Assembly (NCBI GenBank): GCA_016777125.1
Contig: JADHSC010000005.1
Coordinates: forward strand, 6,345 to 70,344
Length of the DNA: 64,000 nucleotides
Source of the DNA: Candidatus Poseidoniaceae archaeon
GTDB lineage: Archaea; Thermoplasmatota; Poseidoniia; Poseidoniales; Poseidoniaceae
Direction of reading: 5' to 3'
Part shown: one piece after another, positions 1,769 to 33,712 of the stretch
Layout: each line of letters begins with the position of its first letter
How positions within the stretch are numbered: the stretch's first letter is position 1
Notes under the pieces: model-generated
Database searches by the model: none
What the model was told of the DNA's origin: nothing
The model's input: the letters and a program-made list of their open reading frames with translations, nothing else
Position numbers and translations under genes: made by a program

Positions 1769-4240
1769 ATGCAATCAAAGCGTGCATACGTTCTCATCGG
1801 TCTGCTCATGTGCTCGGTACTGATTCCAGGCATACAAGCTACTGAGGGTAGGGATGCACCACAGTGCCTTTCAGTAACCGAATCAACGCTGTCATCTCAA
1901 GTTGCTGTAGCCAATGGTGCATGCATGCGTTTTGACCTCGGAACCCTCCAACCTGGTGATGTCTATGACTTCTCGATTACCGTCATTGATGACGCACTCG
2001 ACGTTCTTGTTTTCGATGAATCAGGATTGCAGCCTTACCTCTTAGGTCAATCATATCGTTCTACATTCCAACAAGTTCCTTCGACCGAATCTGCAAATGG
2101 TCAATACGAATTTCATTGGAAAGTACCTTCCTCGATCAATGCCAAATCATGGACAGTGATCATCGACAATCTTGCTCATGATGGTGATCAAGGACAAGGT
2201 GACCAAGGTGGTGTTGATGGACGGATTTCCATGACGGTCTCGGAATTAACAGATACTCCATGGACGCCTTATCATGATCTCGTTGGCATCATTCCAGATG
2301 GCCATGTGACTCTTCTGGAGGGAACCTCTTTGCAACTTGAGGAAGGAACAACAATAGCCGTAACTGCTTGGTCCCTCCAAGGATTTGCAGATGTGTACTT
2401 ACAAACTGATTCGATGAATGCAAACTATCTTTCGGGTCAATCAAATGTAGCCCTAACAGGGGCCTCACTTGTTGGTGTTGATGGAACTTCTTCGTTCAGT
2501 TGGGTCGTTCCATCTGCTCTTGCGAATCAACCTCTCAAATTGGTTGTTGATAACACTGAAGATCCTGATGGTCAAGGAGATGGTTCAACGAACCTAAGAG
2601 TAACAATTCGTGTTCAACTCGTTCCTGTCATTCAGGCTCAATTCGTTGCAGAAAACACCACGGTTGCAATGAATACATTGGTTGGATTCGATGCTGCCTC
2701 AACTCCAAATAATCTCGGCCAAATATCACAATATACGTGGGATTTTGATTCCACAATCGATGGTAATGGTGATGGTGACTTCATCAACGACGTCGATGCA
2801 ATTGGCCTTACTTCAGAAGCGCAGTGGACCTCTCCTGGTGAACGAATCGTTACATTAACTGTTCTTGGACAGAGTAGTTTCGATCGTCAAGAACAAACCA
2901 TTACCGTGAATGATATTATCAATCCAGTGCCTCGAATTACCGGAACAACGGCCTCCTCTTCATCTGCTACACCAGTCTCTGGTAGTTGGAGAATCGCTTA
3001 CGCAAACACCCTTGTTTTGACTTGCAATTCAAGTTCGGATGATGATTCAATCTCTTCGTGTTCATGGTCTCTCGATGGTGCTCCTTACAATCAACAGACA
3101 ACGGTTTCCTTCAATTGGAGCACGATTGGAGAACACGTCGTTGGCCTTACTGTCTTTGATGGGAGCGGTAATAGCGCTTCAACACAGGTGGATGTTCGAG
3201 TTGTAGATGGTTCAATACCTGTAATTGATGACTTCTTTGTTTCTCAATTCAAGAACTCACTCGAAGAGGGTCAAATCCAAACGTACTCAATCAACGCAAA
3301 CGATGTTTACGACTCCGCATCAAACCTTCGATATCACTGGGACATCAATCCATCAGAAGATACCGATCAAAACGGAAATCCAACGGATGATCCTGATTAC
3401 ATTGGGCCCAACGTTGATTTGTTATTCGATACAGCGGGGACAAAAACAGTTGTTGTAACGGTCTTTGATGCTTCAAATAATACTGACACTCGAACCTTTA
3501 CAATCGTCGTTGAGGAGTCGGTCGAATCGAGCACAAACTTTGGATTAATCGCCGTAGTTTTGTTCATTTTTGTTGTAACATTGTCAATATCTTTCATTGG
3601 ATACCGTCGCTGGCAGTCCTCAATTGCAGTTGGTTTGTTGACAGGCCGCGGCCTTTCAGACTCTGAAGCGAAGGCACACATGACAATGGTTCGTCAATCT
3701 CAAAAGTTGCCACTCTTTGCTAAAGCCATCCAACTTGCAGGACTTGATGTTGGTGAAGTTGTTACCCAAGATCAACAAGAACAAGCTCGTAAGGAAGCAG
3801 AACTTCAATCGATTTATGGAAATGGAGAAGTCGAAGAAATCCCCCAGGCTCAGTTCGCTCCAAAGAGAGAGATTAGCCAAGCAAGTTCGCAAGCAGCGGC
3901 TGAAGCAGCGGCTCTGTTCTTCGATGACGCCCCCTCCGCCCCTGCACCAGTTATCATCCAAGACCCTGACGATGCTCTCCTTCGAGAGCTAGGGTCGATG
4001 AATGAAAAGCCTTCCCAAACCCCTCAATCCGGTGGTATTCAGTTGCCAGAAAATTTGGCTCCTGCTGTCGAACATCCACTTCCAACTCCTGAAGTTGTGG
4101 AAGTGGAAAAACCATCCAATTTACTCAAAGGCTCTTGCAACAGTTGTTCTTTGAAATTCCAAGTACCTATGCCAGACGGTGTGAATGAAGCAATTGTTGT
4201 GTGTCCATCATGTTCTGAAGAACAACTCTTCCAACGCTAA
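1769..4240 (+). CDS. secreted/membrane-anchored surface protein: signal peptide, PKD-like repeats, single TM, acidic cytoplasmic tail ending in a zinc ribbon
   Basis: Signal peptide MQSKRAYVLIGLLMCSVLIPGIQA. At least three PKD-like repeats (e.g. VVGLTVFDGSGNSAS and TKTVVVTVFDASNNTD). TM helix FGLIAVVLFIFVVTLSISFIGY. C-terminal CNSC-x17-CPSC. Confidence 0.7.
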   Translation: MQSKRAYVLIGLLMCSVLIPGIQATEGRDAPQCLSVTESTLSSQVAVANGACMRFDLGTLQPGDVYDFSITVIDDALDVLVFDESGLQPYLLGQSYRSTFQQVPSTESANGQYEFHWKVPSSINAKSWTVIIDNLAHDGDQGQGDQGGVDGRISMTVSELTDTPWTPYHDLVGIIPDGHVTLLEGTSLQLEEGTTIAVTAWSLQGFADVYLQTDSMNANYLSGQSNVALTGASLVGVDGTSSFSWVVPSALANQPLKLVVDNTEDPDGQGDGSTNLRVTIRVQLVPVIQAQFVAENTTVAMNTLVGFDAASTPNNLGQISQYTWDFDSTIDGNGDGDFINDVDAIGLTSEAQWTSPGERIVTLTVLGQSSFDRQEQTITVNDIINPVPRITGTTASSSSATPVSGSWRIAYANTLVLTCNSSSDDDSISSCSWSLDGAPYNQQTTVSFNWSTIGEHVVGLTVFDGSGNSASTQVDVRVVDGSIPVIDDFFVSQFKNSLEEGQIQTYSINANDVYDSASNLRYHWDINPSEDTDQNGNPTDDPDYIGPNVDLLFDTAGTKTVVVTVFDASNNTDTRTFTIVVEESVESSTNFGLIAVVLFIFVVTLSISFIGYRRWQSSIAVGLLTGRGLSDSEAKAHMTMVRQSQKLPLFAKAIQLAGLDVGEVVTQDQQEQARKEAELQSIYGNGEVEEIPQAQFAPKREISQASSQAAAEAAALFFDDAPSAPAPVIIQDPDDALLRELGSMNEKPSQTPQSGGIQLPENLAPAVEHPLPTPEVVEVEKPSNLLKGSCNSCSLKFQVPMPDGVNEAIVVCPSCSEEQLFQR

Positions 4241-4315
4241 AATCAAGATAAGGAATCAATCGTTGTTTACGCAGTTCGGGGATGGGTTCAGATACCAGTT
4301 CCTTCACCTATATTC

Positions 4316-7300
4316 ATGGTCGAAGAAGCGATTCGTTTGATTCGCCCTGGCCTTAAGCAGCCAAAAAGAGGACGTCTCGCCTTTTTTCTTGTTCTTGTCA
4401 TGCTTATTCCCTTGTTCCAGCCAGTTCAGGCTGATATCACTGTACGGCAAGATGATTTTGACCTCTTAGAGACTCTCTCAGATGTGATGGCATTACAAGA
4501 ATCAAGCGATGATTCTGTTGTTGCAGTTGGTTCGTCAACCTCTGCTTTAGCCTTAGTTGAGGCTGCGAAGCGAGAAAGTCAAGCAGGTGATCCGCTCGAT
4601 GATGCTACGCAATATCTGAATAATGTCGAGTTAAGAGACACGACTCCGCTTGCTGAAGATCACCCGCGTCCGTACGAGATTCTTTTGGATACGAATTCTC
4701 AACCTGATGGTTGGCCAAATAATCTCCTCCAAACCTTATTTTCTCTTGAGGCCATTTCGTTAACAGACCCGCTTGCAGTGGGGATTAACACCTATGCGTT
4801 GTACGTTAATTTCTCAAGCAGAAATTCAGGGCCACAGTTTGAGACTTGGTCCTATGGGACGTTTACAGGTGAATTATTCGTAGGGGCTGATTTGGTTTTA
4901 TTCGAAAATTACATCGATATCGATGGAGATAACGTTGATGACGTTTCAATTTCGCTAACGGTACTTGGTCTGCTTCAACTCAACCAAGGGTTCGGATTTG
5001 AACCCCCATTTGATCCGTTCAACCCGTTTAGTGCAATTCCAGATACGATCTGGCTCCGACCTACATTCCAATGGAAGATTAACCAACTGAACGAGAATGA
5101 TCCCCTTTGGGATGAGATGGCTCACATGGAAATCTCTCTTCTGAAGGGTCTTGCATTTGACTCAGCAGTTCAAGATTCACAATCTTATGCACTTGTTCTT
5201 GACACACGATTGACTCAACCGCCAAGCGATTTCAGAGTCGAAGTTGGAATCCAAGAATTTAGGTTTAGTATCTCGAGCGCTGTCACAAACATTGTTCAAC
5301 TTCTCACGGATTTCATTGGAGGTGGTGCTTTACCAGCAGATGCGTTGACGTTAACATCCGTATCAGCACCATATGCTATCGGAATACGGAATCCTAATTC
5401 AGACGCATCCAATCTCCAAACCGAGTGTGATACGGACTATTATGACGTTATCAACGACCATGATGCAACAAGTGAGCTCCACAAATGTGGATTTGGAGTG
5501 GGAATCGGTTTCATCGAATTCGAGGAACTCGATGTAAACGGCCAAGCAGATATTATTGACATGGGATACATCGATGTTGGATTCCATCCTGAACGAGGTT
5601 CTAACGTATTGCCTGAAGAAGTTGATTTGACGCTAAGAAACGACAACCTTGGAGACAATACGTTCGATACTGTTGAACTGTACAGTGATACGGGGGCTGA
5701 TCTTTGGCTCCATTACTTCGAAGACCGAAGCAACACAATTGAAGGCGGAACCTTTGGAAACGTATCCGATTCTCGATTATGGATACGCGGCATACCTTCT
5801 GGAACACTCCCCCAAGAAGAAATAGATGCCATTTTCACGACAATTGGAGAAGCTCCAGGAAGTGTCAATCTTCCCGGAGATATGCCAGACAGACTTTCAT
5901 TTATTGTTGCGATAAAGAATTTCACTGGAGATTCAACTACAAACCAAAATGATCTCACCCTCCCCATCAATCCGGCAGCGCCACCGACAACACTGATTAT
6001 GATTGCAGGAACTGAACGAATTGATTCATTGACCTATGACTCAACAATGAAGCGCGGTGGCTATGATAACGATGTTAGTTCTATTCGAATATCCGTTTCG
6101 AATCTTCCTGAAGTTCTCGTTTTGAAAGGAAGTTTCCAATTATCCGAGACTGGTGTTTCTCGGGTCAATTTCAACAATCCTAACCTCAATACAATTTCTC
6201 AACTCCTTGACAATGCTCTGTTGACCTTGGTCGAAATTGTACTCGATTTGGGGTCTATACTCAACGGACTTCCTGATGCCATTGTCAGTACTGCTGGAAC
6301 CTCTGGCGGTTCCATCGAAGTCATCTGTTTGACTCAAGTAAAACAAACATGGAACGACGGTTCTGTACGCGGCCCGAGCAGTTTAGGGGAAATTGCACTA
6401 GCCATTGGCAGCAGTGACCATCCTTGGTTCACATCATCCGATCACATTCTCCTGTCCGAAGACACATCCATTGCCACGATCGCAGGAAGAGATGGCCCAG
6501 TCTCTCCTCTGGTCCCAATTGCCATGAGCATCCGTGTTTCAAACATCTCAAGGGTGTTCCAATCCTTTGATGGAATTACAAGCGAGAGGACGCTTGAATT
6601 AATTGGTCAACAGTCAGGCGCCCTCTTGATTGGGCACATCCGTCACAATGGTGATGATCTCGTCAATGTAACGAGCCAATCGGCCCGAATATCGAACCGA
6701 CCAGGCGATTTAACCGTTGTACAAGACCCGAGTAAACTCGTCTATTCTGCAAGTGAGCCGATTGGAACCATCACCTACGGAGGCCAAGAGGGTAAACAAC
6801 GCAATGCCATTCGACTCGAAGGCTTACCATCAGCCTTCCAATTGAATCTGGGTGATTCGGTTGGATTTGCTGCTGATACACCTATCGATTCGATCACGAT
6901 TCAAATGACCAACGCTACAACGCCGTTAACAATGGACGGAGACCATTTCAGATTCTGGGTTAACACAGATACATCAGAGGCTTCACTCAGTGCACGTATT
7001 TCCAACGTCCAGTCTGTTCAACGATTTTCTCCGCTTAATCCAAATGCAACTGGACCGGAAGGAAGCGCACGATATTCCTTGCAAAGACAAACATCAACTC
7101 CGTTCAATATTGTCATGGAAGATGTGAGTAACTATGACGACCCGTTCCTTGGTCTGAACGGAATGATGCGACTTGATCCATTGCCAGCAAATCTAGAAAT
7201 TGTTCTTCCGAGTGATGTTGATTCCAGTGGTATTGAATTACCTGATTTCGGTGAAGGAGAGGGCGTTGAAGCGCTCTCATTCTTCCTCGGCGACGTTGTT

Positions 7301-8986
7301 GATTTAGGCAGTTTAGTCAACGACCTTGTGTATGGCCTCGTGGTTGATATTGGCGACTCTTCAGGAGAACAAGCTGATGTTGCTTATGGATTGGACATGG
7401 TCACAGGTGAGAGTTTCGACCTTACAGCAGACATGCGCAAAGGATCTGTTCCTACTGGGACACCAGAATGGCAACATGGTCTTGACATACAGGCAACAGA
7501 GCGAACAGTACTCGACTTCAACCTCTCTCGTCTTCCAGAATTTACTCAATCAAGCCGAACAATCGTTTCCGATATTCTCAGCGATTACATCATCGATGAG
7601 TCCGAAGCTGAAATTATTCGCCAAGAATTCACTCAGGCAAATCTCAGCATCGCAAATACATTAATTGAGTCCCTCGATGATGGGTTACTTACAGAAAGAG
7701 AACTCAAAGGCATTGATGTAGCCTTGCTTGCAGAAGGCGGCATCACCTTTGAAACACGACGAAGTTGGCATGTTCACACATGGCTTCCTCAATTGCCTTC
7801 AGGACGTATTGAAATCGATTACATCTTCACTCTGGTTGATGAAGTTCCAACTTATGATTTCGAAATGAATCTCGAGGACTGGTTGCCAGCAGAAGAACGA
7901 TTCTATCTCACGATGGATGGAATTCAGAAATCTTCAGTGGAACTTCAGATATTTGGTTTAGATACATCAACGTCCCGAGATGTATCTGCCAAAGCATTAT
8001 TCTCACGTCAAGAGAATCTCACAGTCCCTCGTTTGTCCGTGGACATGAGCTATGATATCGGGCAACGATTGGATTATGTTTACGCGGTTTTCAACGATAA
8101 AGAGAACAAGGTACGTGCTGAAACCTTCCTCGTAGGTGTTCCTCAACAAACTCAGTTTTCAGCGACAATTGGAGACGTTTTGTTACTCGATGTTGATGTT
8201 CCTCAGGAATTCCGCGTAGGGGATACGAGTGTACAATCGATGATGATTCAACAGCATCGCTTTGTCGATGGATTCTGGTGGCCTTCTACAACATTCTTCA
8301 GAGATGTACCTTCTGAAATGCGCCTTGCAGCTGAGCCTGATCAACGACTCGACATTCGGGAAGAGACTTCCTTCCAAGGAATGATGACTCTGGATTATGC
8401 TTCAAATTCGGATAAGATGGATATGTATATCGAAGCATCTGGACGAGCTATTGACGCAAAAGGAGATACTCTGATGATGGCTACAAATTTACCACGAACA
8501 TTCAAGTTGGAAACAACAGATGATTGGGGTGTTCGAATCGTTAGTTCTGGTGATGGAGTCGAAGAACTCTATATGCGACAAACCAACGTTCCAGGAGCAC
8601 CAGGTGTGTTCCTCGATCGTCTTGAAATCATAGGAGAGGACCTCAAAGGCGCGACGATTACAATACATCGCCCACTCGGATATCCAGTCATCATAATCGA
8701 TGATATCACGACAGGTCGTCTTGTTTCAAGTGCAGAAGTTCATATTCAACCAGGTGAATATGTTCCGCTTATGGGCGATTTCGAAGTCGATGGACGAGGT
8801 GTTCTTCTCGATGCTCAGTTTACTGGGTTCATTCCAACCTCAACCTCGATAGGTGTGAATGGTGTCGTTACAGATTTATCAGTCGTCAGTACTCTGACTG
8901 GTGGTTCTGTTGAAACACGACACATATTGGTGGTTGAACCAATTACATCAGGTGTTGCATCTGTATTAGCAATGATCTTTGGGTGA
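4316..8986 (+). CDS. giant (1556 aa) highly acidic secreted protein, no recognisable catalytic domain
   Basis: Long uninterrupted ORF. N-terminal signal peptide (h-region LAFFLVLVMLIPLF, cleavage near VQA-D). Very acidic composition. Lies in the same orientation as the flanking surface-protein genes. Confidence 0.7.
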   Translation: MVEEAIRLIRPGLKQPKRGRLAFFLVLVMLIPLFQPVQADITVRQDDFDLLETLSDVMALQESSDDSVVAVGSSTSALALVEAAKRESQAGDPLDDATQYLNNVELRDTTPLAEDHPRPYEILLDTNSQPDGWPNNLLQTLFSLEAISLTDPLAVGINTYALYVNFSSRNSGPQFETWSYGTFTGELFVGADLVLFENYIDIDGDNVDDVSISLTVLGLLQLNQGFGFEPPFDPFNPFSAIPDTIWLRPTFQWKINQLNENDPLWDEMAHMEISLLKGLAFDSAVQDSQSYALVLDTRLTQPPSDFRVEVGIQEFRFSISSAVTNIVQLLTDFIGGGALPADALTLTSVSAPYAIGIRNPNSDASNLQTECDTDYYDVINDHDATSELHKCGFGVGIGFIEFEELDVNGQADIIDMGYIDVGFHPERGSNVLPEEVDLTLRNDNLGDNTFDTVELYSDTGADLWLHYFEDRSNTIEGGTFGNVSDSRLWIRGIPSGTLPQEEIDAIFTTIGEAPGSVNLPGDMPDRLSFIVAIKNFTGDSTTNQNDLTLPINPAAPPTTLIMIAGTERIDSLTYDSTMKRGGYDNDVSSIRISVSNLPEVLVLKGSFQLSETGVSRVNFNNPNLNTISQLLDNALLTLVEIVLDLGSILNGLPDAIVSTAGTSGGSIEVICLTQVKQTWNDGSVRGPSSLGEIALAIGSSDHPWFTSSDHILLSEDTSIATIAGRDGPVSPLVPIAMSIRVSNISRVFQSFDGITSERTLELIGQQSGALLIGHIRHNGDDLVNVTSQSARISNRPGDLTVVQDPSKLVYSASEPIGTITYGGQEGKQRNAIRLEGLPSAFQLNLGDSVGFAADTPIDSITIQMTNATTPLTMDGDHFRFWVNTDTSEASLSARISNVQSVQRFSPLNPNATGPEGSARYSLQRQTSTPFNIVMEDVSNYDDPFLGLNGMMRLDPLPANLEIVLPSDVDSSGIELPDFGEGEGVEALSFFLGDVVDLGSLVNDLVYGLVVDIGDSSGEQADVAYGLDMVTGESFDLTADMRKGSVPTGTPEWQHGLDIQATERTVLDFNLSRLPEFTQSSRTIVSDILSDYIIDESEAEIIRQEFTQANLSIANTLIESLDDGLLTERELKGIDVALLAEGGITFETRRSWHVHTWLPQLPSGRIEIDYIFTLVDEVPTYDFEMNLEDWLPAEERFYLTMDGIQKSSVELQIFGLDTSTSRDVSAKALFSRQENLTVPRLSVDMSYDIGQRLDYVYAVFNDKENKVRAETFLVGVPQQTQFSATIGDVLLLDVDVPQEFRVGDTSVQSMMIQQHRFVDGFWWPSTTFFRDVPSEMRLAAEPDQRLDIREETSFQGMMTLDYASNSDKMDMYIEASGRAIDAKGDTLMMATNLPRTFKLETTDDWGVRIVSSGDGVEELYMRQTNVPGAPGVFLDRLEIIGEDLKGATITIHRPLGYPVIIIDDITTGRLVSSAEVHIQPGEYVPLMGDFEVDGRGVLLDAQFTGFIPTSTSIGVNGVVTDLSVVSTLTGGSVETRHILVVEPITSGVASVLAMIFG

Positions 8987-8990
8987 TATA

Positions 8991-9635
8991 ATGGAAGATG
9001 AATTAGTTGTACATGAGGACGATATCATCTCCTCAAAACCTCTCGGTTTGTTGGAATCATCTCAACGCCAAGAGGCCTTTGCAATGGGCTTAGATCTCGA
9101 TGATCCTGAACAAGCAGAAGCATACATGCAAGCCCAAGAAGCAGCTCTTTTCATCAAAGAACGTATTCGAAATATCAACCCTGCACGTGTTGCTATTGCT
9201 GGTCTAATCATGCTCCTTCTTGTTGGATTAATTGCAAGTGGATGGTATTGGGTCCTTCCGCGTGATGATGTGGAAGTTGAAACCATCTACATGCAACGAG
9301 GTGGACATCTAATCATGTCCGAATTATACAATGATGGAAGCCGTGCTATTACGGACGTAACAGTTCAGGTTGAATTCCAAGACGAGTTTGGTACTCTCAT
9401 TCAGGAGATGAGGATCGATGTTGATGAAGTCGCAGCCCATTCTTCACTTGCTGGTGATGATTTGGAAATGATTGTTCTTGGCTATACTGTGTGGGATGAA
9501 TACATACTGGAAGTTTCTGTTACTTGGACATCTTTCGATAACAGAGTCCATACGGAATCTTGGGCACATGTGGTCGGCGAATGGGCATCAGAACGTTTCG
9601 TTGATGACTGTGAAACGACAACTAAATTGTTTTGA
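8991..9635 (+). CDS. small single-pass membrane protein coupled to the giant protein
   Basis: ATG at 8991 sits 5 nt after the upstream stop, with a GGGTGAT RBS-like motif. TM helix VAIAGLIMLLLVGLIASGWYWVL. The upstream TTG at 8979 overlaps the giant ORF and is less likely. Confidence 0.5.
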   Translation: MEDELVVHEDDIISSKPLGLLESSQRQEAFAMGLDLDDPEQAEAYMQAQEAALFIKERIRNINPARVAIAGLIMLLLVGLIASGWYWVLPRDDVEVETIYMQRGGHLIMSELYNDGSRAITDVTVQVEFQDEFGTLIQEMRIDVDEVAAHSSLAGDDLEMIVLGYTVWDEYILEVSVTWTSFDNRVHTESWAHVVGEWASERFVDDCETTTKLF

Positions 9636-9695
9636 TATACGTTGAAACACATTACCCATAGCGATAAATGCGTCTTATAACGGAGGAGAAGTGTG

Positions 9696-12600
9696 ATGAG
9701 ACATCAATGGAGGCCAGCACTCGGAATCTTGCTGATTCTTTTGTTGAGTCCTTGGAGTAGTCTTATTCAGACCGAGGAAGAGGAATCATCTGCCCTAATG
9801 GGTGATGAATTCGAGCAGTTCTCTATTCGAACAGATGCGTATTCAGACTTTGTTGGTGAACTCGATGCAACCATTGGGCATGAACAACGACCTGTAGAGG
9901 CAAACTCGCGAATAGGGGTGTTCACCATACATGGACTCGAGACCTCACGGCCGTTATCAAGTGACGTCCTTGAACCTCGTAATGATGTGCGTCTTCTGCT
10001 TGTGAATAACGAGCGTAACCTTCTCGATGTACGTTCTGAATTATCCGAAGTACAAGGTCTTGAAGTCAGAGAATACATTTCACCATCCGGATTGCTCGTA
10101 CAGGGGACAGTTGATGGATTTGATTCAGCAATGGGTGTCGATGGAATAGAAGGGCAACTCCTCGTTCCATTGGCTATGTTCCTTGATGATGTCTTCCTCG
10201 ATACCATGCTCTTTGAACAAGAAACTGCAGCAATCTACGGGCAAGAAGTACGTCTTGAAGGGTGGAGGAGTGAACAAACACTCGATACAATCTCGATACA
10301 TGATGCAAGTGGATCGAGTATTGAACAAGACCTCAATGATGTTGCAATTCTGGCAATGGATGAAGTTGTCAAACTGGATGACGGAAGATATAGAGGACTA
10401 CTTTCAGTAGACGATATCCTTGACATTGTCCGTCAACCTTCAGTCATGTGGCTACGTTTTGAGCCTCAAATGGCGTTCAGCAATGACCAATCGAAAAATC
10501 ACATGAAGATCACAACAATGCGTTCTTACTTCACAACAGATCTTGATGGTTCTGGACAAATTGTTGCGGTTGCTGATTCAGGACTAGATGAAGATCATGG
10601 TGATTTCGGGACTCGAGTTGTCGGTAATTTCGATGTTATTGGAGACGGTTCGACAGCCGACAAACACTCTGGTCATGGAACACACGTCGCATGTACTGTT
10701 CTTGGAGATGGGACAAAGGGTGGCTATGCAGGCGTGGCTCCGTCTGCAGACCTCTACTTCCAAGCCATGGAGAATGATAACACAGGAAACTTCCAATCAC
10801 CTTCACTCAATTATCTTCTCAACACAGCCTACAATTCAGGAGCTCGAATTCATACCAATTCATGGGGCTCTTCTGCAGCATCAAATCAGGGTAAGTATAC
10901 CTCTGAATCAGAAGATGTCGATGATCGAGCCAACAATTACGATCGCGTCTACAACGGGGTCGAAGGCTTAACCATTCTCTTTGCAGCAGGTAATGATGGT
11001 CCAAATGCAGGTACCGTTGGTTCACCATCAACTGCAAAAAACTCTGTTACAGTCGGTAACCACCAAGCCCGATACAATGGAGCGCCTGATAATCTGATGT
11101 CAGGATCTTCTCGCGGGCCAACTGATGATGGACGAATCAAACCAGATATTATCGCACCTGGAGGCTATGTTCGTTCATGTCGTGCTCAAGAGGCACAAGA
11201 CATCGCAGGATCATCTTGGCAATCAACATGGTATCTCGAATATACCGGGACTTCGATGGCTACACCAAATGCAGCAGGCGCTTCAGCGCTCATTCGTGAG
11301 TATCTTCTTGAAATTGCTCAACGTCCTTCTCCGCAAGGTGCATTGATCAAAGCGCTCTTGGTTCTCGGCGCACAAGACATCAATACTCGAGATATTCCGA
11401 ATAATGATGAAGGATGGGGGCGAGTAAATCTCAAAGAAACTCTTGCTCCTTCTCAGGGACGTGGTATTTGGGTTGATGACCGTTCTGTATTATCGAATAC
11501 GGGTCAATCAAAATCATATGTATTCAACGTCACTTTTGCCAATTCACAACTCAAAACAGTCCTTGCATGGTCTGATGCTCGTGGAAGTCGATTTTCTAAT
11601 AACCAACTGGTTAATGATTTGGATTTAGAAGTTGAATCACCAGATGGTACGATCTATCTCGGTAATGATTTTGCGAATGGGCGTTCAACAACGGGGGGTA
11701 CTAAAGACGACGTAAATAACCTCGAAGTTGTGCTTATTGATACTGCAATGAAAGGAATTTGGACTGTTCGAGTCAAAGACGGAATGCATGGTGGAAGCAA
11801 TACTCAGCCGTTTGCTATTGCAGTTTCTGGACAGGGCGTGAATGATTTACGTCCAGACCCTCAAGTTGTGGCTAATTCGATGCTTCTGAATGTTTCAATT
11901 CCACAAGTCGGTGATCAAGTTCGATTGACAACAGAGGTTTTCAATGCAGGGAATATCAAAGCGGAATCAGTTGATCTTGCCTTTGTTATCGATGGTGTAG
12001 AAGAAGATCGTAAAACCGTTGACATCAATCCGGGCGCATCCCGCCAGTCGACATGGTATTGGACTCCATCACAATCTGGAACTGCAACGCTTGAATTGAA
12101 GATTGATCCTGACGATACAATTGATGAAATTCAAGAAAACAATAACCTCCTTACGACCATTGTGGATGTGACAGCACCTGGTGTCAAAGTCACGTCAAAT
12201 GTAACTGAACAAGTCGTTCAATTTGCGAGTCAAACAACAGCTTCTTGGAATTTAACGCTCGAAAATACCGCTTTGATAGAAACGAATGCATCGATCGATA
12301 TCCTTGGTGTATCACGTGTTTCGGATGGAACAACCGTGCCCTGGTATGTCGGGATGACAGCATCAAATTTTACACTTCAAGGGAAAGGTAAGGCTTCGAT
12401 ATCTGTTACGATTGTTTACCCAGAAGCGCCAGAGCCAGGAATGTATGAAATCAATGTGGTTGGAATAGATGTTGACAATGCAATCACGTATCCGTATCAA
12501 TTGTACCTCCACGTGTTGGATATCCCTGAATTCAGAATTGAGTATGATTACGAGATCGTCCCCGTTCATCCTGCAAACCCGACGAACCTTTCAGTTCGAG

Positions 12601-14177
12601 TTTACAACGATGGAAACACAGAGATTGGGTACGATTTATTCTTGCAAGCTCCGTCTGGATGGAGTGCAGGATTCCAAGATCTTGGAAGCGAACCAGGCGC
12701 ATCTTCCGGTTCGACAGGTCTTATTACAAAGCAGGGGCAAAAGGATGTGGAATTACAATTCATTCCTCCACAAGTGTCGACTGCAGCAGGAGCTGAACGT
12801 ATGGTGCGTCTAACTGCGATTTCTCAAACAGACCCTTCTCAAACGTGGGAAATTGATATTCCCATCCGTGTTATGGAAGTTCGGGAAGTTGAGATTTTAC
12901 TTGAATCGAACATTGGAACACCTCGCCCAGATGCAACATTGAATCTCTTGTTTACGATTGAAAACCGTGGAAATGTCGACATTACATTCAACCCGAGTAT
13001 GTCTCTACCAACTGGATGGCAAGTTCAATCAACCCTTCAGCCAATTGAGATGGCATGGACGGACAATTCGAAAAATATCCTCATCAGCATCGTTGGAAAT
13101 GGTGATGCAATTTCAGGTCAACTCACGCTCAATCTCGACAACGGCTCAGACCGGTATTCATGGAATACTCAACTTGAAGTTCTGGCATTACCTCAACCAG
13201 AATTAACATTCAAAAGTTTAGACTTTGAAGATGGGAGAACCTTTGATCATCCATTTGGTCCAGGGGCTCATCCTGCTGATCAAGAACTCATCTTCACATG
13301 GTTATTGACCAATGATGCTGAAACAGTGTGGAGGCCTGATATATCCATCTCAGTTTCCCAAGGGCTGTTCGGAGATTGTCTCGATGTTACACAGGTTGCA
13401 TCAGGCGATGTCGTGCCAGTTGTTTGCTCGATTATCATACCATCCACCATAGAGGTTGGTTCCCAGCCTGATTTCAGTTTCACACTTTCGGGAGATGGTG
13501 TTTCACTCGTTGAAGGAACAAGTCTCCTTGTCGCAGAAAGTCGCGGGGTTGATTGGAAGATTACAGGACTTTCAACCATAGATGACTCAGGATCTGGGAC
13601 GATTCAGGTTCGTTTGACCAATACGGGAAATGTTCAACTTTCACACAGGCTTGAACTGCAAACGACTGAAGGACTAACAGCGTCATTAGTCGAGGAAGAT
13701 ATCGTTAACATGGTCGCTGGTGATTCGCAACAATTTACTGTGGTTGTCACAGGTTTAGCCAGTGGATCACAGCAGATCACGTTTCAGCTAACAGGAACCC
13801 AAGAGGTATCGACTCCGGCGACAACTGTTGACATTGATGTGACCGCTTCGTTTAGCGAAACAGCTTCAAACAGTCAAACACTCTTGTATTCAAGCATAGG
13901 AATTACTCTTCTTGCAGTAATCCTTCTTGGCGGCATTTTAGCCCGTTCAAAGAAAGAATCAGACGTCGTTTCTCCGGAACAAAAAGCCCTTCCTTCAATT
14001 GTTCAACAACCTGCAGTCATGTGTTGGTCATGTCATGGTCCAATCACTGGACCAATGCAAGGATGCCCTGGCTGTGGCGCACGATATCATACAAAAGGTA
14101 CTGAAAATTGTGATGCTCAAAGTCTTGAAGCCTGTGCGAATTGTGGAGCGAGTACAGAACAGTTCGTACTTGCATAA
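9696..14177 (+). CDS. subtilisin-like (S8) serine protease fused to multiple CARDB-like Ig-fold repeats, TM anchor and cytoplasmic zinc-ribbon tail
   Basis: Signal peptide. Catalytic triad motifs VAVADSGLD (Asp), HGTHVACTV (His) and GTSMATPNAAG (Ser). Repeated NPGAS/NAGN CARDB-like modules. TM helix IGITLLAVILLGGILA. Tail with CWSC-x10-CPGC and C-x8-CANC. GGAGGAG RBS 7 nt upstream of the ATG. Confidence 0.8.
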   Translation: MRHQWRPALGILLILLLSPWSSLIQTEEEESSALMGDEFEQFSIRTDAYSDFVGELDATIGHEQRPVEANSRIGVFTIHGLETSRPLSSDVLEPRNDVRLLLVNNERNLLDVRSELSEVQGLEVREYISPSGLLVQGTVDGFDSAMGVDGIEGQLLVPLAMFLDDVFLDTMLFEQETAAIYGQEVRLEGWRSEQTLDTISIHDASGSSIEQDLNDVAILAMDEVVKLDDGRYRGLLSVDDILDIVRQPSVMWLRFEPQMAFSNDQSKNHMKITTMRSYFTTDLDGSGQIVAVADSGLDEDHGDFGTRVVGNFDVIGDGSTADKHSGHGTHVACTVLGDGTKGGYAGVAPSADLYFQAMENDNTGNFQSPSLNYLLNTAYNSGARIHTNSWGSSAASNQGKYTSESEDVDDRANNYDRVYNGVEGLTILFAAGNDGPNAGTVGSPSTAKNSVTVGNHQARYNGAPDNLMSGSSRGPTDDGRIKPDIIAPGGYVRSCRAQEAQDIAGSSWQSTWYLEYTGTSMATPNAAGASALIREYLLEIAQRPSPQGALIKALLVLGAQDINTRDIPNNDEGWGRVNLKETLAPSQGRGIWVDDRSVLSNTGQSKSYVFNVTFANSQLKTVLAWSDARGSRFSNNQLVNDLDLEVESPDGTIYLGNDFANGRSTTGGTKDDVNNLEVVLIDTAMKGIWTVRVKDGMHGGSNTQPFAIAVSGQGVNDLRPDPQVVANSMLLNVSIPQVGDQVRLTTEVFNAGNIKAESVDLAFVIDGVEEDRKTVDINPGASRQSTWYWTPSQSGTATLELKIDPDDTIDEIQENNNLLTTIVDVTAPGVKVTSNVTEQVVQFASQTTASWNLTLENTALIETNASIDILGVSRVSDGTTVPWYVGMTASNFTLQGKGKASISVTIVYPEAPEPGMYEINVVGIDVDNAITYPYQLYLHVLDIPEFRIEYDYEIVPVHPANPTNLSVRVYNDGNTEIGYDLFLQAPSGWSAGFQDLGSEPGASSGSTGLITKQGQKDVELQFIPPQVSTAAGAERMVRLTAISQTDPSQTWEIDIPIRVMEVREVEILLESNIGTPRPDATLNLLFTIENRGNVDITFNPSMSLPTGWQVQSTLQPIEMAWTDNSKNILISIVGNGDAISGQLTLNLDNGSDRYSWNTQLEVLALPQPELTFKSLDFEDGRTFDHPFGPGAHPADQELIFTWLLTNDAETVWRPDISISVSQGLFGDCLDVTQVASGDVVPVVCSIIIPSTIEVGSQPDFSFTLSGDGVSLVEGTSLLVAESRGVDWKITGLSTIDDSGSGTIQVRLTNTGNVQLSHRLELQTTEGLTASLVEEDIVNMVAGDSQQFTVVVTGLASGSQQITFQLTGTQEVSTPATTVDIDVTASFSETASNSQTLLYSSIGITLLAVILLGGILARSKKESDVVSPEQKALPSIVQQPAVMCWSCHGPITGPMQGCPGCGARYHTKGTENCDAQSLEACANCGASTEQFVLA

Positions 14178-14202
14178 TTCGTAAACAGGAAAGGACATCC
14201 TT

Positions 14203-17112
14203 TTGATAGGTCAACACCTCCCCGTAAATAGGAGAGGGATTTTCTTGAGCAGAACATCTGGCAGCAAACACCTTGCGATTTTGTTTATTTCGCTCATGGT
14301 AATCTCCATGATGCCCCTATCAGTCCCTACCGTTTCTGCGGATGAAGGGAGGGATGCGAACATTCGCCTGACAGTTAATCCATCCGAACAAAATATCAAT
14401 CCTGGAGAATCTGGGGAATACACAGTTCGAGTTTACAATGATGGATCGACTCCAGTAACAATTCAATTGAGTACAGCGGAAGAAGGAACTCAAGAATGTG
14501 GGGCATACACCTCATCCATTACCCAAATCAGTGGCGCAATTGAATCAGGTTCCTATGAAGAAGCGACCATGACTGTTACACTAACGGTCAATGCAGAATC
14601 ATCTTGCGACACGACCGTTTCAGCGACTGCAACAGAATCTCCAGATCCTCCAGAAATACCAGGACAACCTGTCACTAAAACTTCAACAGTGACGACAACC
14701 GCTGGCGATGGATCTGGCAACGCACTTTTCGGAGTTGATTTGTCAATGGTCGTTTCGAGTAAGACATGGGGCGGTGAAGAGACGACAGAATGGACTCTCG
14801 TTGTTGAAAACACCGGCCAACAACAAACAGATGTCAATCTCGTAGTCGATGAGGTTACAGATGGTGCTTGTTCAAACCCAGGCAGTCTTACGCCATCGCT
14901 ATCGGAAACATCGGTCTCACTTGGTGCAAACGAAACAGAAGATGTCATTGTTTCTCTTGACATAGATAACGAAGAAGAAGCCGATAAGTATTGCTGGGAG
15001 ATTACTGGAACAGTCTCTTCTGACCCGACAGGCAATTCTTCTGATACTCAAGAATTTGATATTACAGTCCCCGTTTTGAAGGAATGTGATTTAACTCTCT
15101 CAAAATCAACATTGAGCATCGAGCCTGATGCTGATGCTACACTAAAGGCCATATTTACAAACGAAGGTAACTCTGATTGGACTATTCAAGCTGCTGCTGC
15201 AGGTCCAAAGGCTGGATGGGTTGCATTTGTTGGCGGCACCAGTGGGCTACTGCCATATAGTGGTGGAAGCGGAACCAAGGAATTCAATCTCAAAGTCACT
15301 CCAGATGACTCCGTTATAGCCGGAGAAGAGCAAACCATAACCATCCAAGGGAAAGATGGAACCGCCGTAAAATGCAGTTCAGAACTGACAATCGTCGTAG
15401 GACAGTCCTATGGTGCAACGATTTCAATGACATCCTCCCAACTTAACAACATAGAACCAGGTACGAGTGCGACAACATCTGTCACAGTTGAAAATACAGG
15501 CAATGGTGTTGATAACTTCAGAATTACACCTTCTTCTCTACCAGCGGGATGGAGTGTTGAACTCGATCAGAACGTTATTTCACTCGATTCAAAGCATACG
15601 CCTCAGAGGAAAGACACGGTCGATGTCACCGTCTCTCTACCAACAGATGCGTTAGCGACTGAGGTCGTGAACATCGTACTTTCAGTCTCGCCTTCATCAG
15701 GTGGTCAAGCCTACGATGAAGTGACTCTTGCAGTCTCTGTTGCAGCTGTTCATGAGTTTGAGGCAATATCGACAGCAATGACGCAAACTGGTAAGAATAA
15801 TAATGAGGTCAAATTCCCATTTGAAATCGATAACATTGGAAACGTGGAAGATAGTTTCAGACTAAGCGTTATCAGCCAAACGGCCACTCCAGGATGGTCT
15901 TTTTACTTCGAGGATGCTGCAGGTAATCGATTTACTGAAATCGCAGTCGATGCTCGTACCTCCAAGCAAATTTTCTGTGTTGTTACAGTTACAGATTCCG
16001 ATGAATATACTACTTTGACCATCAGAGTTACCAACAAAGGTGATTCCAATAGCATTGATGAAGATTCGGACGGTATTCCAGACAATCAACGTGAGTTGAA
16101 ATTCACAGCTTTCCTAACGACCCGGGACTATGCAATGGATGTTCGTCTTGAAAATGGTGGGCTTGATGGAAGAACTGGCGAATTAATTCTCGCTCCAGGT
16201 GATGATGAAACAATCGGTCTCTGGCTGAGGAATATGGGTAATGGTGATGACATTGCAATGATTGAACTCACAGGTCTTACAGGCATAGCCACACGAACAG
16301 TATATTCAACTGGCTTGCCCATTGGTGACGAATTAGCCATTCCGTTCGGGTATGGGATCTGGGATGAGAACAACAGCCGTTTCGTTACCGATGCATCGGG
16401 AGCTCCGTATCTTGAAAATACAGCAAATGCTGCAGAAGAGGAAATGTACTTCACACTTAATCTCAGTCAAGGCCATAGCGTCAAGCCTTATGAGATGTAT
16501 CTCGAACTCAAAATCGATGTTAATGAAGCGACTTTGACTGGTGAGGGAGGCAATCTCAACATCGTTGTTACAAGTAAATCTAACGCTGCAAACCGTAGTG
16601 GGACGGCAACAGTTTCCCTGAGTGTCAAAGAGATTTTCAATCTTCAAATCCTCCAACCTACTCAAGATTCGTTCGAAATAACATACCCTGAGCCTTTGAA
16701 GTTTGATGTTCAAATTCGTAATGATGGAAATGTTCGGACAATGACTGAAATCTTTTCTTCAGACAATCTTCGTGGTTGGATGGTCACCCTAGAGGAACCT
16801 GTTAACGATAATGACTGTGAATTGATAGAGGTTAACCGTCTTGAATGTTGGATTGATCAAGGCGAAACCAAGAATGTTACTGTAATTGTCAAATCACCTT
16901 ACGATGCAGAATTCAAAGATACGTTTGATTTCACCATCTCTGCCCAACCCGAGGAAATTGGAGTTATCGGGCGTACGAACCAACAATTCGATGTCACAGG
17001 TGACGTTGAATCATCGCTCTTCGGATTTGCAGAGGATGCCACAGTTGCTGTGGTTGGTGGTGGGTTCATCTGCCTCATTCTTCTCGGATTCATTATTAGC
17101 CGCCGTAGTTGA
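14203..17112 (+). CDS. secreted surface protein with CARDB-like repeats and a C-terminal TM anchor (PGF-CTERM-like variant)
   Basis: Signal peptide LAILFISLMVISMMPLSVPTVSA-DEG. Repeated NPGESGEYTVRVYNDG-type modules. C-terminus GGGFICLILLGFIISRRS*. TTG start preceded by AGGAAAGGA. Confidence 0.65.
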   Translation: MIGQHLPVNRRGIFLSRTSGSKHLAILFISLMVISMMPLSVPTVSADEGRDANIRLTVNPSEQNINPGESGEYTVRVYNDGSTPVTIQLSTAEEGTQECGAYTSSITQISGAIESGSYEEATMTVTLTVNAESSCDTTVSATATESPDPPEIPGQPVTKTSTVTTTAGDGSGNALFGVDLSMVVSSKTWGGEETTEWTLVVENTGQQQTDVNLVVDEVTDGACSNPGSLTPSLSETSVSLGANETEDVIVSLDIDNEEEADKYCWEITGTVSSDPTGNSSDTQEFDITVPVLKECDLTLSKSTLSIEPDADATLKAIFTNEGNSDWTIQAAAAGPKAGWVAFVGGTSGLLPYSGGSGTKEFNLKVTPDDSVIAGEEQTITIQGKDGTAVKCSSELTIVVGQSYGATISMTSSQLNNIEPGTSATTSVTVENTGNGVDNFRITPSSLPAGWSVELDQNVISLDSKHTPQRKDTVDVTVSLPTDALATEVVNIVLSVSPSSGGQAYDEVTLAVSVAAVHEFEAISTAMTQTGKNNNEVKFPFEIDNIGNVEDSFRLSVISQTATPGWSFYFEDAAGNRFTEIAVDARTSKQIFCVVTVTDSDEYTTLTIRVTNKGDSNSIDEDSDGIPDNQRELKFTAFLTTRDYAMDVRLENGGLDGRTGELILAPGDDETIGLWLRNMGNGDDIAMIELTGLTGIATRTVYSTGLPIGDELAIPFGYGIWDENNSRFVTDASGAPYLENTANAAEEEMYFTLNLSQGHSVKPYEMYLELKIDVNEATLTGEGGNLNIVVTSKSNAANRSGTATVSLSVKEIFNLQILQPTQDSFEITYPEPLKFDVQIRNDGNVRTMTEIFSSDNLRGWMVTLEEPVNDNDCELIEVNRLECWIDQGETKNVTVIVKSPYDAEFKDTFDFTISAQPEEIGVIGRTNQQFDVTGDVESSLFGFAEDATVAVVGGGFICLILLGFIISRRS

Positions 17113-31879: not shown

Positions 31880-33712
31880 TCAATCCCGCTGTTGAAGCCA
31901 AGCTACAACAAAGCCAGCACAAAGGAGTGCAAACATGGTTGGAGCGAACGATGGAACAAGGCCAGGGGAGGAAACGTCAGCACCCGTAACGACCATGTAA
32001 TGGTCGTTGTTTATCTCACTGTTTTCATCGATGAGATTTGAAGGGTCGATACGTACACGCAGGTCATATTGTCCAGTATTTGGAACGGTGTAGTTCCATG
32101 TGAGATATGCTACACCGGTGCCAAGGGAACCTGCAAGAAGTGTTTGTGCTTGCATAACAGTCCATTCTGTTGCTGCATTACGATCGGCAGGAGCAGCTTC
32201 TAAAATCACAGCAACTGATCCAGGATACGCCTTGTTGGAACGGATTTCGCCAGAGATTGTGATGTTACCAAATGTGTCACCGGGACGCACAACAAGTTTG
32301 TTGACGTCAGTTTCAGTCACATTCCAATAGAGGTCGAGTCCTGGCATGACTTGGAATGCTCTAGGTTCTGTTGTTTCGCTGTTTCCAGCTTCGTCTACAA
32401 CAGTCGCTCTAAGCATGAGGTACTGACGAGACTTTGTTGCCCAATTTGCTAATGCAAGGTCTCTATCAAGGCCAGTGCCGGGAACTTCAAGCCATTGGCC
32501 TGAGAGGTCTGGTGTTAGGCCAACACCGTTTAGATCGAATCCATATTGTAATGAAATCTCACTTTCGTCGATACCTGAGAGTAAGTCATACGCTGCAAAG
32601 GAAATGTTGGCTTGACCGACAAGATCGGTTGTAAGTGCATCAACAGTCCATCCCACCATTTCAGGAATAGTGGTGTCAACTTGCACAGTTGCTGTAATTG
32701 TGTTTCCAACGTTACCAACCTTATCCGTTGCTCGTAATTCGAGTGTATGATTTCCCTCTTCAAGCGTAATTGAATGTGTATTCGTGGTGATAGCGGTCCA
32801 TGTTCCAGAATCAATTTTCAGTTCCACAGTCTCGACACCAGATCCAGTTCCATCATTGGCACCATCCAGAACACCAGATAGTTCCACATTTGTAGAGGAT
32901 TGCCATGTTGAACCACTTCCAACTGTGATGGAGGACATGGTTGGTCCAGTACGGTCGATACCAATGAATAATGTCGATGTATTACTCAATCCGGAATCGT
33001 CGTAAACAGTAAGTCGAGGATTCCAAGTTCCTTCAGAAAAACTTCCGCTTGACCAATCCCAGCCGTATGTAAGACTCGACGGTCCATCAGTGGAAGGTGA
33101 CCCAGGTCCTGGGACATTCTGTAGAGTTGCTCTGTTGAAATCATCATCAGAAACACCGTATCGGAATTCTAAGGTACCAGTCTCAGCGATGCTAAACCAT
33201 GCTCTATCAGAACTACTTGTTCCAGCCCCAACATTTGGAGATAGAACAGTGAATGCAGTAATATCAGGGACGTGATTATCAATTGTGAATTCTCCTGTTG
33301 TGGTCAACGTAGAGTCGTCTACATCTGTATCCCAGCCAGTAGCACGCATTGTGTATGTGCCATTCGCAACCGAAGTGGAATCAAAATTGAAGAGCCAAGG
33401 TGTACCTGTGAGATTTGTAAGTGTGGAATATGCACCTCCTTGTGATGCAATTTCGACCAAGATCGAATCAATGGTCCCTGTCCCTGAAATGCTGAACGTA
33501 ATCGTCTTCAATCCTGTAACAGATTCCGATTGAACTGGGCCGTTTGAGAATGCGATACTCGCTGCTGATGAGGAGTGTATTACTGCCTCTTCTTCAAGCT
33601 GTAAATCGTTGTTAATGTCAAGTGGGAAAATGGAAATCAGCAAGAGGGAAATGATGCCGACTGCAACCGCTCTGCCTCCCATGCTTTTCTTACAGATGCG
33701 ACCTCCCTTCAA
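31880..33712 (-). CDS. secreted surface protein with Ig-like/CARDB-like repeats and a C-terminal TM anchor
   Basis: N-terminal signal/anchor AVAVGIISLLLISIFPL. Beta-rich repeats. C-terminus PTMFALLCAGFVVAWLQQRD*. Confidence 0.65.
   Translation of the reverse strand: MKGGRICKKSMGGRAVAVGIISLLLISIFPLDINNDLQLEEEAVIHSSSAASIAFSNGPVQSESVTGLKTITFSISGTGTIDSILVEIASQGGAYSTLTNLTGTPWLFNFDSTSVANGTYTMRATGWDTDVDDSTLTTTGEFTIDNHVPDITAFTVLSPNVGAGTSSSDRAWFSIAETGTLEFRYGVSDDDFNRATLQNVPGPGSPSTDGPSSLTYGWDWSSGSFSEGTWNPRLTVYDDSGLSNTSTLFIGIDRTGPTMSSITVGSGSTWQSSTNVELSGVLDGANDGTGSGVETVELKIDSGTWTAITTNTHSITLEEGNHTLELRATDKVGNVGNTITATVQVDTTIPEMVGWTVDALTTDLVGQANISFAAYDLLSGIDESEISLQYGFDLNGVGLTPDLSGQWLEVPGTGLDRDLALANWATKSRQYLMLRATVVDEAGNSETTEPRAFQVMPGLDLYWNVTETDVNKLVVRPGDTFGNITISGEIRSNKAYPGSVAVILEAAPADRNAATEWTVMQAQTLLAGSLGTGVAYLTWNYTVPNTGQYDLRVRIDPSNLIDENSEINNDHYMVVTGADVSSPGLVPSFAPTMFALLCAGFVVAWLQQRD

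Follow-up and report, generated by a model that had tools for sequence, protein, structure and literature searches.

A syntenic cluster of large, putative surface-protein genes in Poseidoniales as a candidate part of the Marine Group II cell envelope

Described envelope systems and the Poseidoniales locus

In Sulfolobales, the envelope proteins SlaA and SlaB are encoded by adjacent genes, one large and one small, and in Staphylothermus marinus the envelope protein tetrabrachion carries a bound subtilase, STABLE, for which precursor maturation and/or nutrition have been proposed as functions (PMC5744192). Here we analyzed a 64,000-nt stretch of DNA from a Candidatus Poseidoniaceae archaeon (the window), in which a first-pass annotation had proposed a tandem array of five genes, four for very large proteins and one for a small one. 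The ORF listing of the window confirms this array: five co-oriented ORFs, designated P1 to P5 in order of position, occupy 15 kb of the plus strand.

1769 to 4240, plus strand: P1, 823 aa, a type-I membrane protein with a signal-like N-terminus, duplicated domains, PKD stretches, a transmembrane (TM) helix and a tail
4316 to 8986, plus strand: P2, 1556 aa, an exported protein, rich in beta structure, whose family is uncharacterised
8979 or 8991 to 9635, plus strand: P3, 218 or 214 aa depending on the start chosen, a single-pass, N-in membrane protein; the ATG at 8991 (214 aa) lies 4 nt past the P2 stop
9693 to 14177, plus strand: P4, 1494 aa, a membrane-anchored S8 subtilase (PF00082, E = 2e-46)
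14203 to 17112, plus strand: P5, 969 aa, a type-I membrane protein with six CARDB-like Ig modules (aa 37-932)

Spacing is tight, with 75 nt between P1 and P2, 57 nt between P3 and P4 and 25 nt between P4 and P5; at the P2-P3 junction the genes overlap by 8 nt, or are separated by 4 nt when P3 starts at the ATG at 8991.

P2 and P3 resemble SlaA and SlaB in being co-oriented neighbours, SlaA being a beta-rich exported protein of ~1,400-1,500 aa and SlaB a small single-pass anchor whose ectodomain, like that of P3, is beta-rich. The pair thus has the gene adjacency of a SlaA/SlaB-type envelope, and the resemblance is one of organisation only: no similarity in sequence or fold was detected (no sequence match in the PDB), the TM helix of P3 is N-terminal whereas that of SlaB is C-terminal, and P3 showed no coiled-coil stalk. 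P2 also differs from SlaA in having its own conserved C-terminal hydrophobic motif, in belonging to a family confined to Thermoplasmatota and in its average transcript level. What the cluster has in common with tetrabrachion and STABLE is that an archaeon living on peptides combines a subtilisin-family protease with a giant, beta-rich protein of the (here putative) envelope. However, P4 has its own Ig stalk, TM helix and zinc-ribbon tail and no coiled-coil docking, and a tetrabrachion homologue is absent.

Residues 282-696 of P4 align end to end with the proteases KP-43 and SubHal (1wmd, 5fax), across both the catalytic and the beta-barrel domains. These chains have ~434 residues and are labelled protease or subtilase, 5fax being from Bacillus halmapalus; we take both to be soluble secreted Bacillus enzymes. 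Beyond them, P4 has ~250 aa of extra N-terminal sequence, the stalk of four Ig-like modules, and a membrane anchor with the zinc-ribbon tail. Lactococcal PrtP-type CEPs and streptococcal C5a peptidase are likewise S8 proteins, longer than 1,300 aa and held at the surface on an Ig/Fn3-like stalk; CEPs use an LPXTG wall anchor, and the lactococcal ones feed peptide uptake. P4, in contrast, is anchored by a TM helix, and its similarity to these Gram-positive proteins is weak and local (E ~1e-6 to 1e-7 over ~90 residues), KP-43 being much closer. P5 shares a signal peptide, an Ig array and a C-terminal membrane anchor with the Pyrobaculum 292-kDa SLP and the Haloferax S-layer glycoprotein, but unlike canonical SLPs it has neither a sequence match to any solved chain nor a PGF-CTERM or other known sorting signal. 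For the block proteins as a whole, no similarity to known S-layer families was found in sequence or fold.

Host, synteny and selection

The first-pass annotation placed the block in a halophilic archaeon and viewed it as a hotspot of strain variation that might mediate host or virus interaction. We rejected a halophile origin because the named relatives all belong to Candidatus Poseidoniales/Poseidoniaceae and because acidity is confined to the exported proteins, which are strongly acidic and poor in Lys/Arg (pI ~4.1-4.3), while pI values of ~5-7.7 were obtained for cytoplasmic proteins encoded in the window. The host is therefore a Marine Group II (MGII) archaeon of the family Poseidoniaceae. 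MGII are among the most abundant archaea of the surface ocean and, to our knowledge, have never been cultured.

The order RNase Z-P1-P2-P3-P4-P5-nuoABC, with its housekeeping flanks, is kept in all 80 species-level Poseidoniaceae loci wherever the contig reaches far enough. The arrangement is identical in the MGIIb sister family, and a published table for an MGIIb MAG lists the genes in the same order. P1-P5 have dN/dS values of 0.03-0.08, the neighbours RNase Z and nuoC having 0.06 and 0.05, respectively; in these comparisons, dN values of ~1.5-2.7 for nuoA (against L018, L001, L006 and L010) and of 2.37 for P5 (against L010) were ignored as start-codon or threading artefacts, and dS was saturated for most genes in the more distant pairs (L006, L010 and L019). 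As dozens of genomes contain a full-length orthologue of every gene, and dN/dS values are so low, the five genes are genuine and not artefacts of gene prediction. The window contains no RNA genes. A scan for promoters and terminators, which covers bacterial signals only and is uninformative here, returned nothing above chance.

In some archaea, Thermococcales among them, hypervariable gene modules encode large surface proteins with Ig domains; the Thermococcales module is likewise built around a large multi-Ig surface protein and is linked to conflict or recognition (PMC8416519). In contrast to that module, the MGII cluster is invariant in gene content and order and under strong purifying selection. 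Patchy presence, broken synteny, odd composition and relaxed or diversifying selection would mark a strain-variable island, and none of them was observed. The comparison across relatives that the first-pass annotation had itself suggested as a test shows the block to be syntenic in all 80 Poseidoniaceae loci examined and in MGIIb. Searches of the block proteins against defence-system and phage libraries gave generic subtilase matches only, which also counts against a virus-interaction island. Because synteny is universal, the GC content of the block equals that of the rest of the window, and purifying selection is as strong as on RNase Z and nuoC, we rejected the variable island; with protein lengths also nearly constant, a strain-variable adhesion or virus-interaction island is extremely improbable. 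The block is a strictly conserved core feature of MGII archaea.

Domain content of the five proteins

We then located the following features within the proteins.

3542 to 3598, plus strand: TM helix of P1, aa 592-610 (Kyte-Doolittle 19-mer score 2.83)
4136 to 4213, plus strand: cytoplasmic CxxC-x18-CxxC zinc-ribbon motif of P1, Cys790/793/812/815
7808 to 8755, plus strand: C-terminal all-beta meander domain of P2, aa ~1165-1480, from the predicted structure
8921 to 8983, plus strand: C-terminal motif of P2, H-x-[ILV]-[ILV]-P-[EDA]-P-[ILV]-[ST]-[ST]; sequence in the window HILVVEPITSGVASVLAMIFG
9189 to 9245, plus strand: TM helix of P3
10536 to 11780, plus strand: protease unit of P4, aa 282-696, a subtilisin domain plus C-terminal beta-barrel of KP-43/SubHal type
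11862 to 13838, plus strand: stalk of P4, four CARDB-like Ig modules (aa 724-822, 934-1041, 1053-1164 and 1273-1382)
13881 to 14144, plus strand: TM helix of P4 (aa 1397-1415, hydropathy score 2.21) and cytoplasmic tail

Sec signal peptides had been claimed for the four large proteins, and a hydropathy scan together with reading of the sequences gave n-h-c signal-like N-termini in all four, as well as C-terminal hydrophobic helices. P1, for which orthologues were found in 64 loci, scores 43.8-45.8 bits with PKD_4 in three stretches, above the Pfam gathering threshold of 27. Its N-terminus is internally duplicated (residues 25-165 against 166-300, hhalign probability 92%, E = 5e-7), giving two domains of ~135 aa each that carry no annotation. 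Behind the TM helix lies a cytoplasmic tail of ~210 aa with the zinc-ribbon motif at its end, whose cysteines are kept in 59-60 of 63 orthologues. A comparable tail in P4 has three CxxC pairs (Cys1444/1447/1458/1461/1481/1484), kept in 60/60 orthologues, and is double zinc-ribbon-like. Since Pfam zinc-ribbon models match weakly (E = 0.08-0.15 for P1; DZR, E = 0.007, for P4), we base the zinc-ribbon label of both tails on the conserved CxxC spacing. These tails, the P1 duplication and the C-terminal motif of P2 were absent from the first-pass annotation. Further PKD and Ig-array proteins are encoded in the window by ORFs 31880-33712 and 33799-36618.

P2 had been described as an acidic orphan. 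It is indeed acidic (pI 4.17), but it is no orphan: its homologues number over 300 and vary little in length (1554-1573 aa in 69 complete orthologues); it does, however, stand outside every curated family, as searches of Pfam, NCBIfam and the PDB gave no match and no recognisable fold. Comparison with the three closest relatives (L009, L018 and L001) gave a dN/dS of 0.027-0.034; no other protein of the block is as conserved, and P2 surpasses even RNase Z in this respect. Relatives at 22-42% identity occur elsewhere in Thermoplasmatota. Distant relatives carry the labels Thermoplasmata, Thermoplasmatota and Poseidoniia, and the L084 lineage is related to MGIII; a profile of distant P2 relatives had four matches in a large protein collection, none of them named. 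The predicted structure is poor across the first 1200 residues (pLDDT 52), for which Foldseek returned nothing. The meander domain is the best-modelled region and the one most widely kept in distant relatives, and it too gave no informative fold match. The C-terminal motif, followed by ~10 small or hydrophobic residues and the stop codon, was found in every one of 19 inspected members of the family, the most distant at 22% identity. It varies in places: P0240 has Q in place of H, some members have V or L where one of the two prolines would stand, and the tail of P0195 is longer. We considered an archaeosortase/exosortase-type signal and rejected it, because none of the sorting-signal models (PGF-, PEF-, PEP-CTERM and others) matched the C-termini of P1, P2, P4 and P5, or those of five distant P2 relatives, at E <= 10, and because only 10-14 residues without a basic cluster follow the P-[EDA]-P motif.

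P3 consists of an acidic cytoplasmic N-terminus, the TM helix, a conserved [IVL]-P-R-[TD] motif and a beta-rich ectodomain. Its match to FxLYD in NCBIfam is sub-threshold (E = 0.007), and its ectodomain showed no relation to the CARDB-like modules, the hhalign probability of ~1% being that of the control. A homologous small gene follows the P2-like gene in MGIIb and in 9/9 distant contigs, among which eight different P2-like proteins are represented; controlled profile tests confirmed that these small genes are related to P3. On this sequence evidence, P2+P3 is the older two-gene core of the cluster, with P3 as the obligate partner of P2. The nine contigs, from other, more distant archaeal lineages, carry the pair without P1, P4 and P5, so the parts can work independently. 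This bears on the possibility that the five surface proteins have separate functions, with a protease for nutrition, adhesins and a P2+P3 pair unrelated to them, and only share a neighbourhood frozen between essential genes. Beyond the separate occurrence of P2+P3, it would fit with the extracellular S8 peptidases of MGII usually being read as nutritional, and with the recurrence of PKD/Ig-array proteins in the window (ORFs 31880-33712 and 33799-36618). We consider such independence unlikely.

P4 is a subtilisin with a full D/H/S triad, as the first-pass annotation had stated. It scores 158.9 bits with PF00082, for which the cut-off is 21.8, and D295, H328, S521 and the oxyanion residue N434 are invariant in 60/60 orthologues. 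The protease unit matches 1wmd_A (phmmer, 5.5e-75, chain residues 17-418) and 5fax_A (3e-74), and the beta-barrel is contiguous with the catalytic domain in the 1wmd_A alignment, which places P4 in the KP-43-like subgroup; the ~250 aa ahead of this unit are without annotation. At least four CARDB modules had been reported in this protein. Four modules were recovered with an iterated in-family profile, but Pfam CARDB (PF07705) validates one of them (729-821, E = 7e-16, 58.6 bits against 22.7). As the other three, like the six modules of P5, were recovered only by that profile, we call them CARDB-like. The modules of P5 are paralogous to those of the P4 stalk, and together they make up one module family. 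P5 itself matches NCBIfam choice_anch_T in three stretches (89.5 bits against a cut-off of 70, E = 1.9e-25), a choice-of-anchor T family that carries no assigned function; it ends in a TM helix (aa 947-965, hydropathy score 2.61) followed by RRS. The Ig-fold repeats claimed for three of the proteins are thus found above Pfam thresholds as PKD in P1 and CARDB in P4, and in P5 by way of the NCBIfam cut-off.

Proposed role of the cluster in MGII archaea

MGII are regarded as protein-degrading heterotrophs, and extracellular S8 peptidases are present in all MAGs (PMC6461757, PMC6864105); MGII genomes carry other S8 copies, which could serve nutrition in place of P4. In the MGII literature searched, we found nothing on the cell envelope and no other envelope candidate; the cluster is not described there, its genes being annotated as hypothetical or as generic subtilisin. 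Field metatranscriptomes show transcripts of each of the five genes, with coverage above zero (PMC9723583, supplementary file 4). For one MGIIb MAG in two informative samples, this coverage was average: it was about that of nuoABC, and ribosomal protein genes stood 10-50 times higher.

The best reading of these data, to which we would give about an even chance, is a housekeeping gene cluster for the cell envelope of Poseidoniales, inherited vertically and including a tethered protease. Surface architecture, which had been among the roles proposed at first, is still the most plausible, shorn of its halophile and hotspot elements. The five products would all be exported and held in the cytoplasmic membrane, most likely acting together as one surface assembly. 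The giant beta-rich ectoprotein P2 and the translationally coupled single-pass P3, a pair found across Thermoplasmatota, would form an ancient core that P1, P4 and P5 may have joined later in Poseidoniales. P1 would contribute its PKD array; P4 would be a KP-43-type subtilase, active site intact, raised off the membrane by four Ig-like modules; and P5 would bring six paralogous Ig-like modules in an architecture typical of archaeal surface-layer proteins. Tethered P4 may cut high-molecular-weight protein at the surface, the products staying near peptide and amino-acid transporters, and/or it may mature other envelope proteins. The zinc-ribbon tails of P1 and P4 could couple the assembly to something cytoplasmic. 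The independence of P2+P3 elsewhere, the poor P2 model, the average transcripts and the other S8 copies count against this reading.

The cluster may also be the actual MGII S-layer, with P5 and/or P2+P3 as the lattice and P4 as a lattice-integrated protease like STABLE on tetrabrachion. The architecture of P5 is that of canonical archaeal S-layer proteins (10.64898/2026.08.21.746120), although none of the proteins resembles a solved S-layer protein in sequence or fold or matches a Pfam S-layer family. A large canopy (P2) with a small membrane stalk (P3) would mirror adjacent slaA-slaB, and an S-layer-bound subtilase is known (PMC5744192). The strongly acidic, Lys/Arg-depleted composition of the exported proteins and the lack of another envelope candidate in the MGII literature searched are consistent with such a layer as well. 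Its transcripts, however, are not among the highest in the two field samples for the MGIIb MAG, and P2 has only 10 N-glycosylation sequons, by a rough estimate about the chance level for its composition. Moreover, exposed lattice proteins usually diverge fast, whereas P2 evolves as slowly as housekeeping enzymes. We therefore hold the identification with the S-layer to be doubtful.

Similarly tentative, and in our view rather improbable, is a joint reading in which Thermoplasmatota would possess, in P2+P3, a previously unrecognised two-component envelope scaffold, be it an S-layer or something equivalent. A new kind of C-terminal signal, H-x-I-I-P-E-P-x-T-S plus a short hydrophobic tail, would attach P2 and might be either processed by some enzyme or docked onto P3. 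MGII would have upgraded this scaffold with the integrated subtilase P4 and the Ig-array proteins P1 and P5, giving rise to a "digestive" cell surface.

P2+P3 defines an uncharacterised pair of protein families across Thermoplasmatota, with an unrecognised C-terminal motif, that is tractable for structural and biochemical work. As P2 and P4 evolve slowly, they are attractive as conserved surface epitopes by which MGII cells might be labelled, sorted or enriched. The cluster, encoding ~5,000 residues of putative surface protein, is a good candidate for part of the MGII cell envelope; being order-wide and under strong purifying selection, it is the most concrete candidate both for that envelope and for the surface step of the protein degradation proposed for these archaea.

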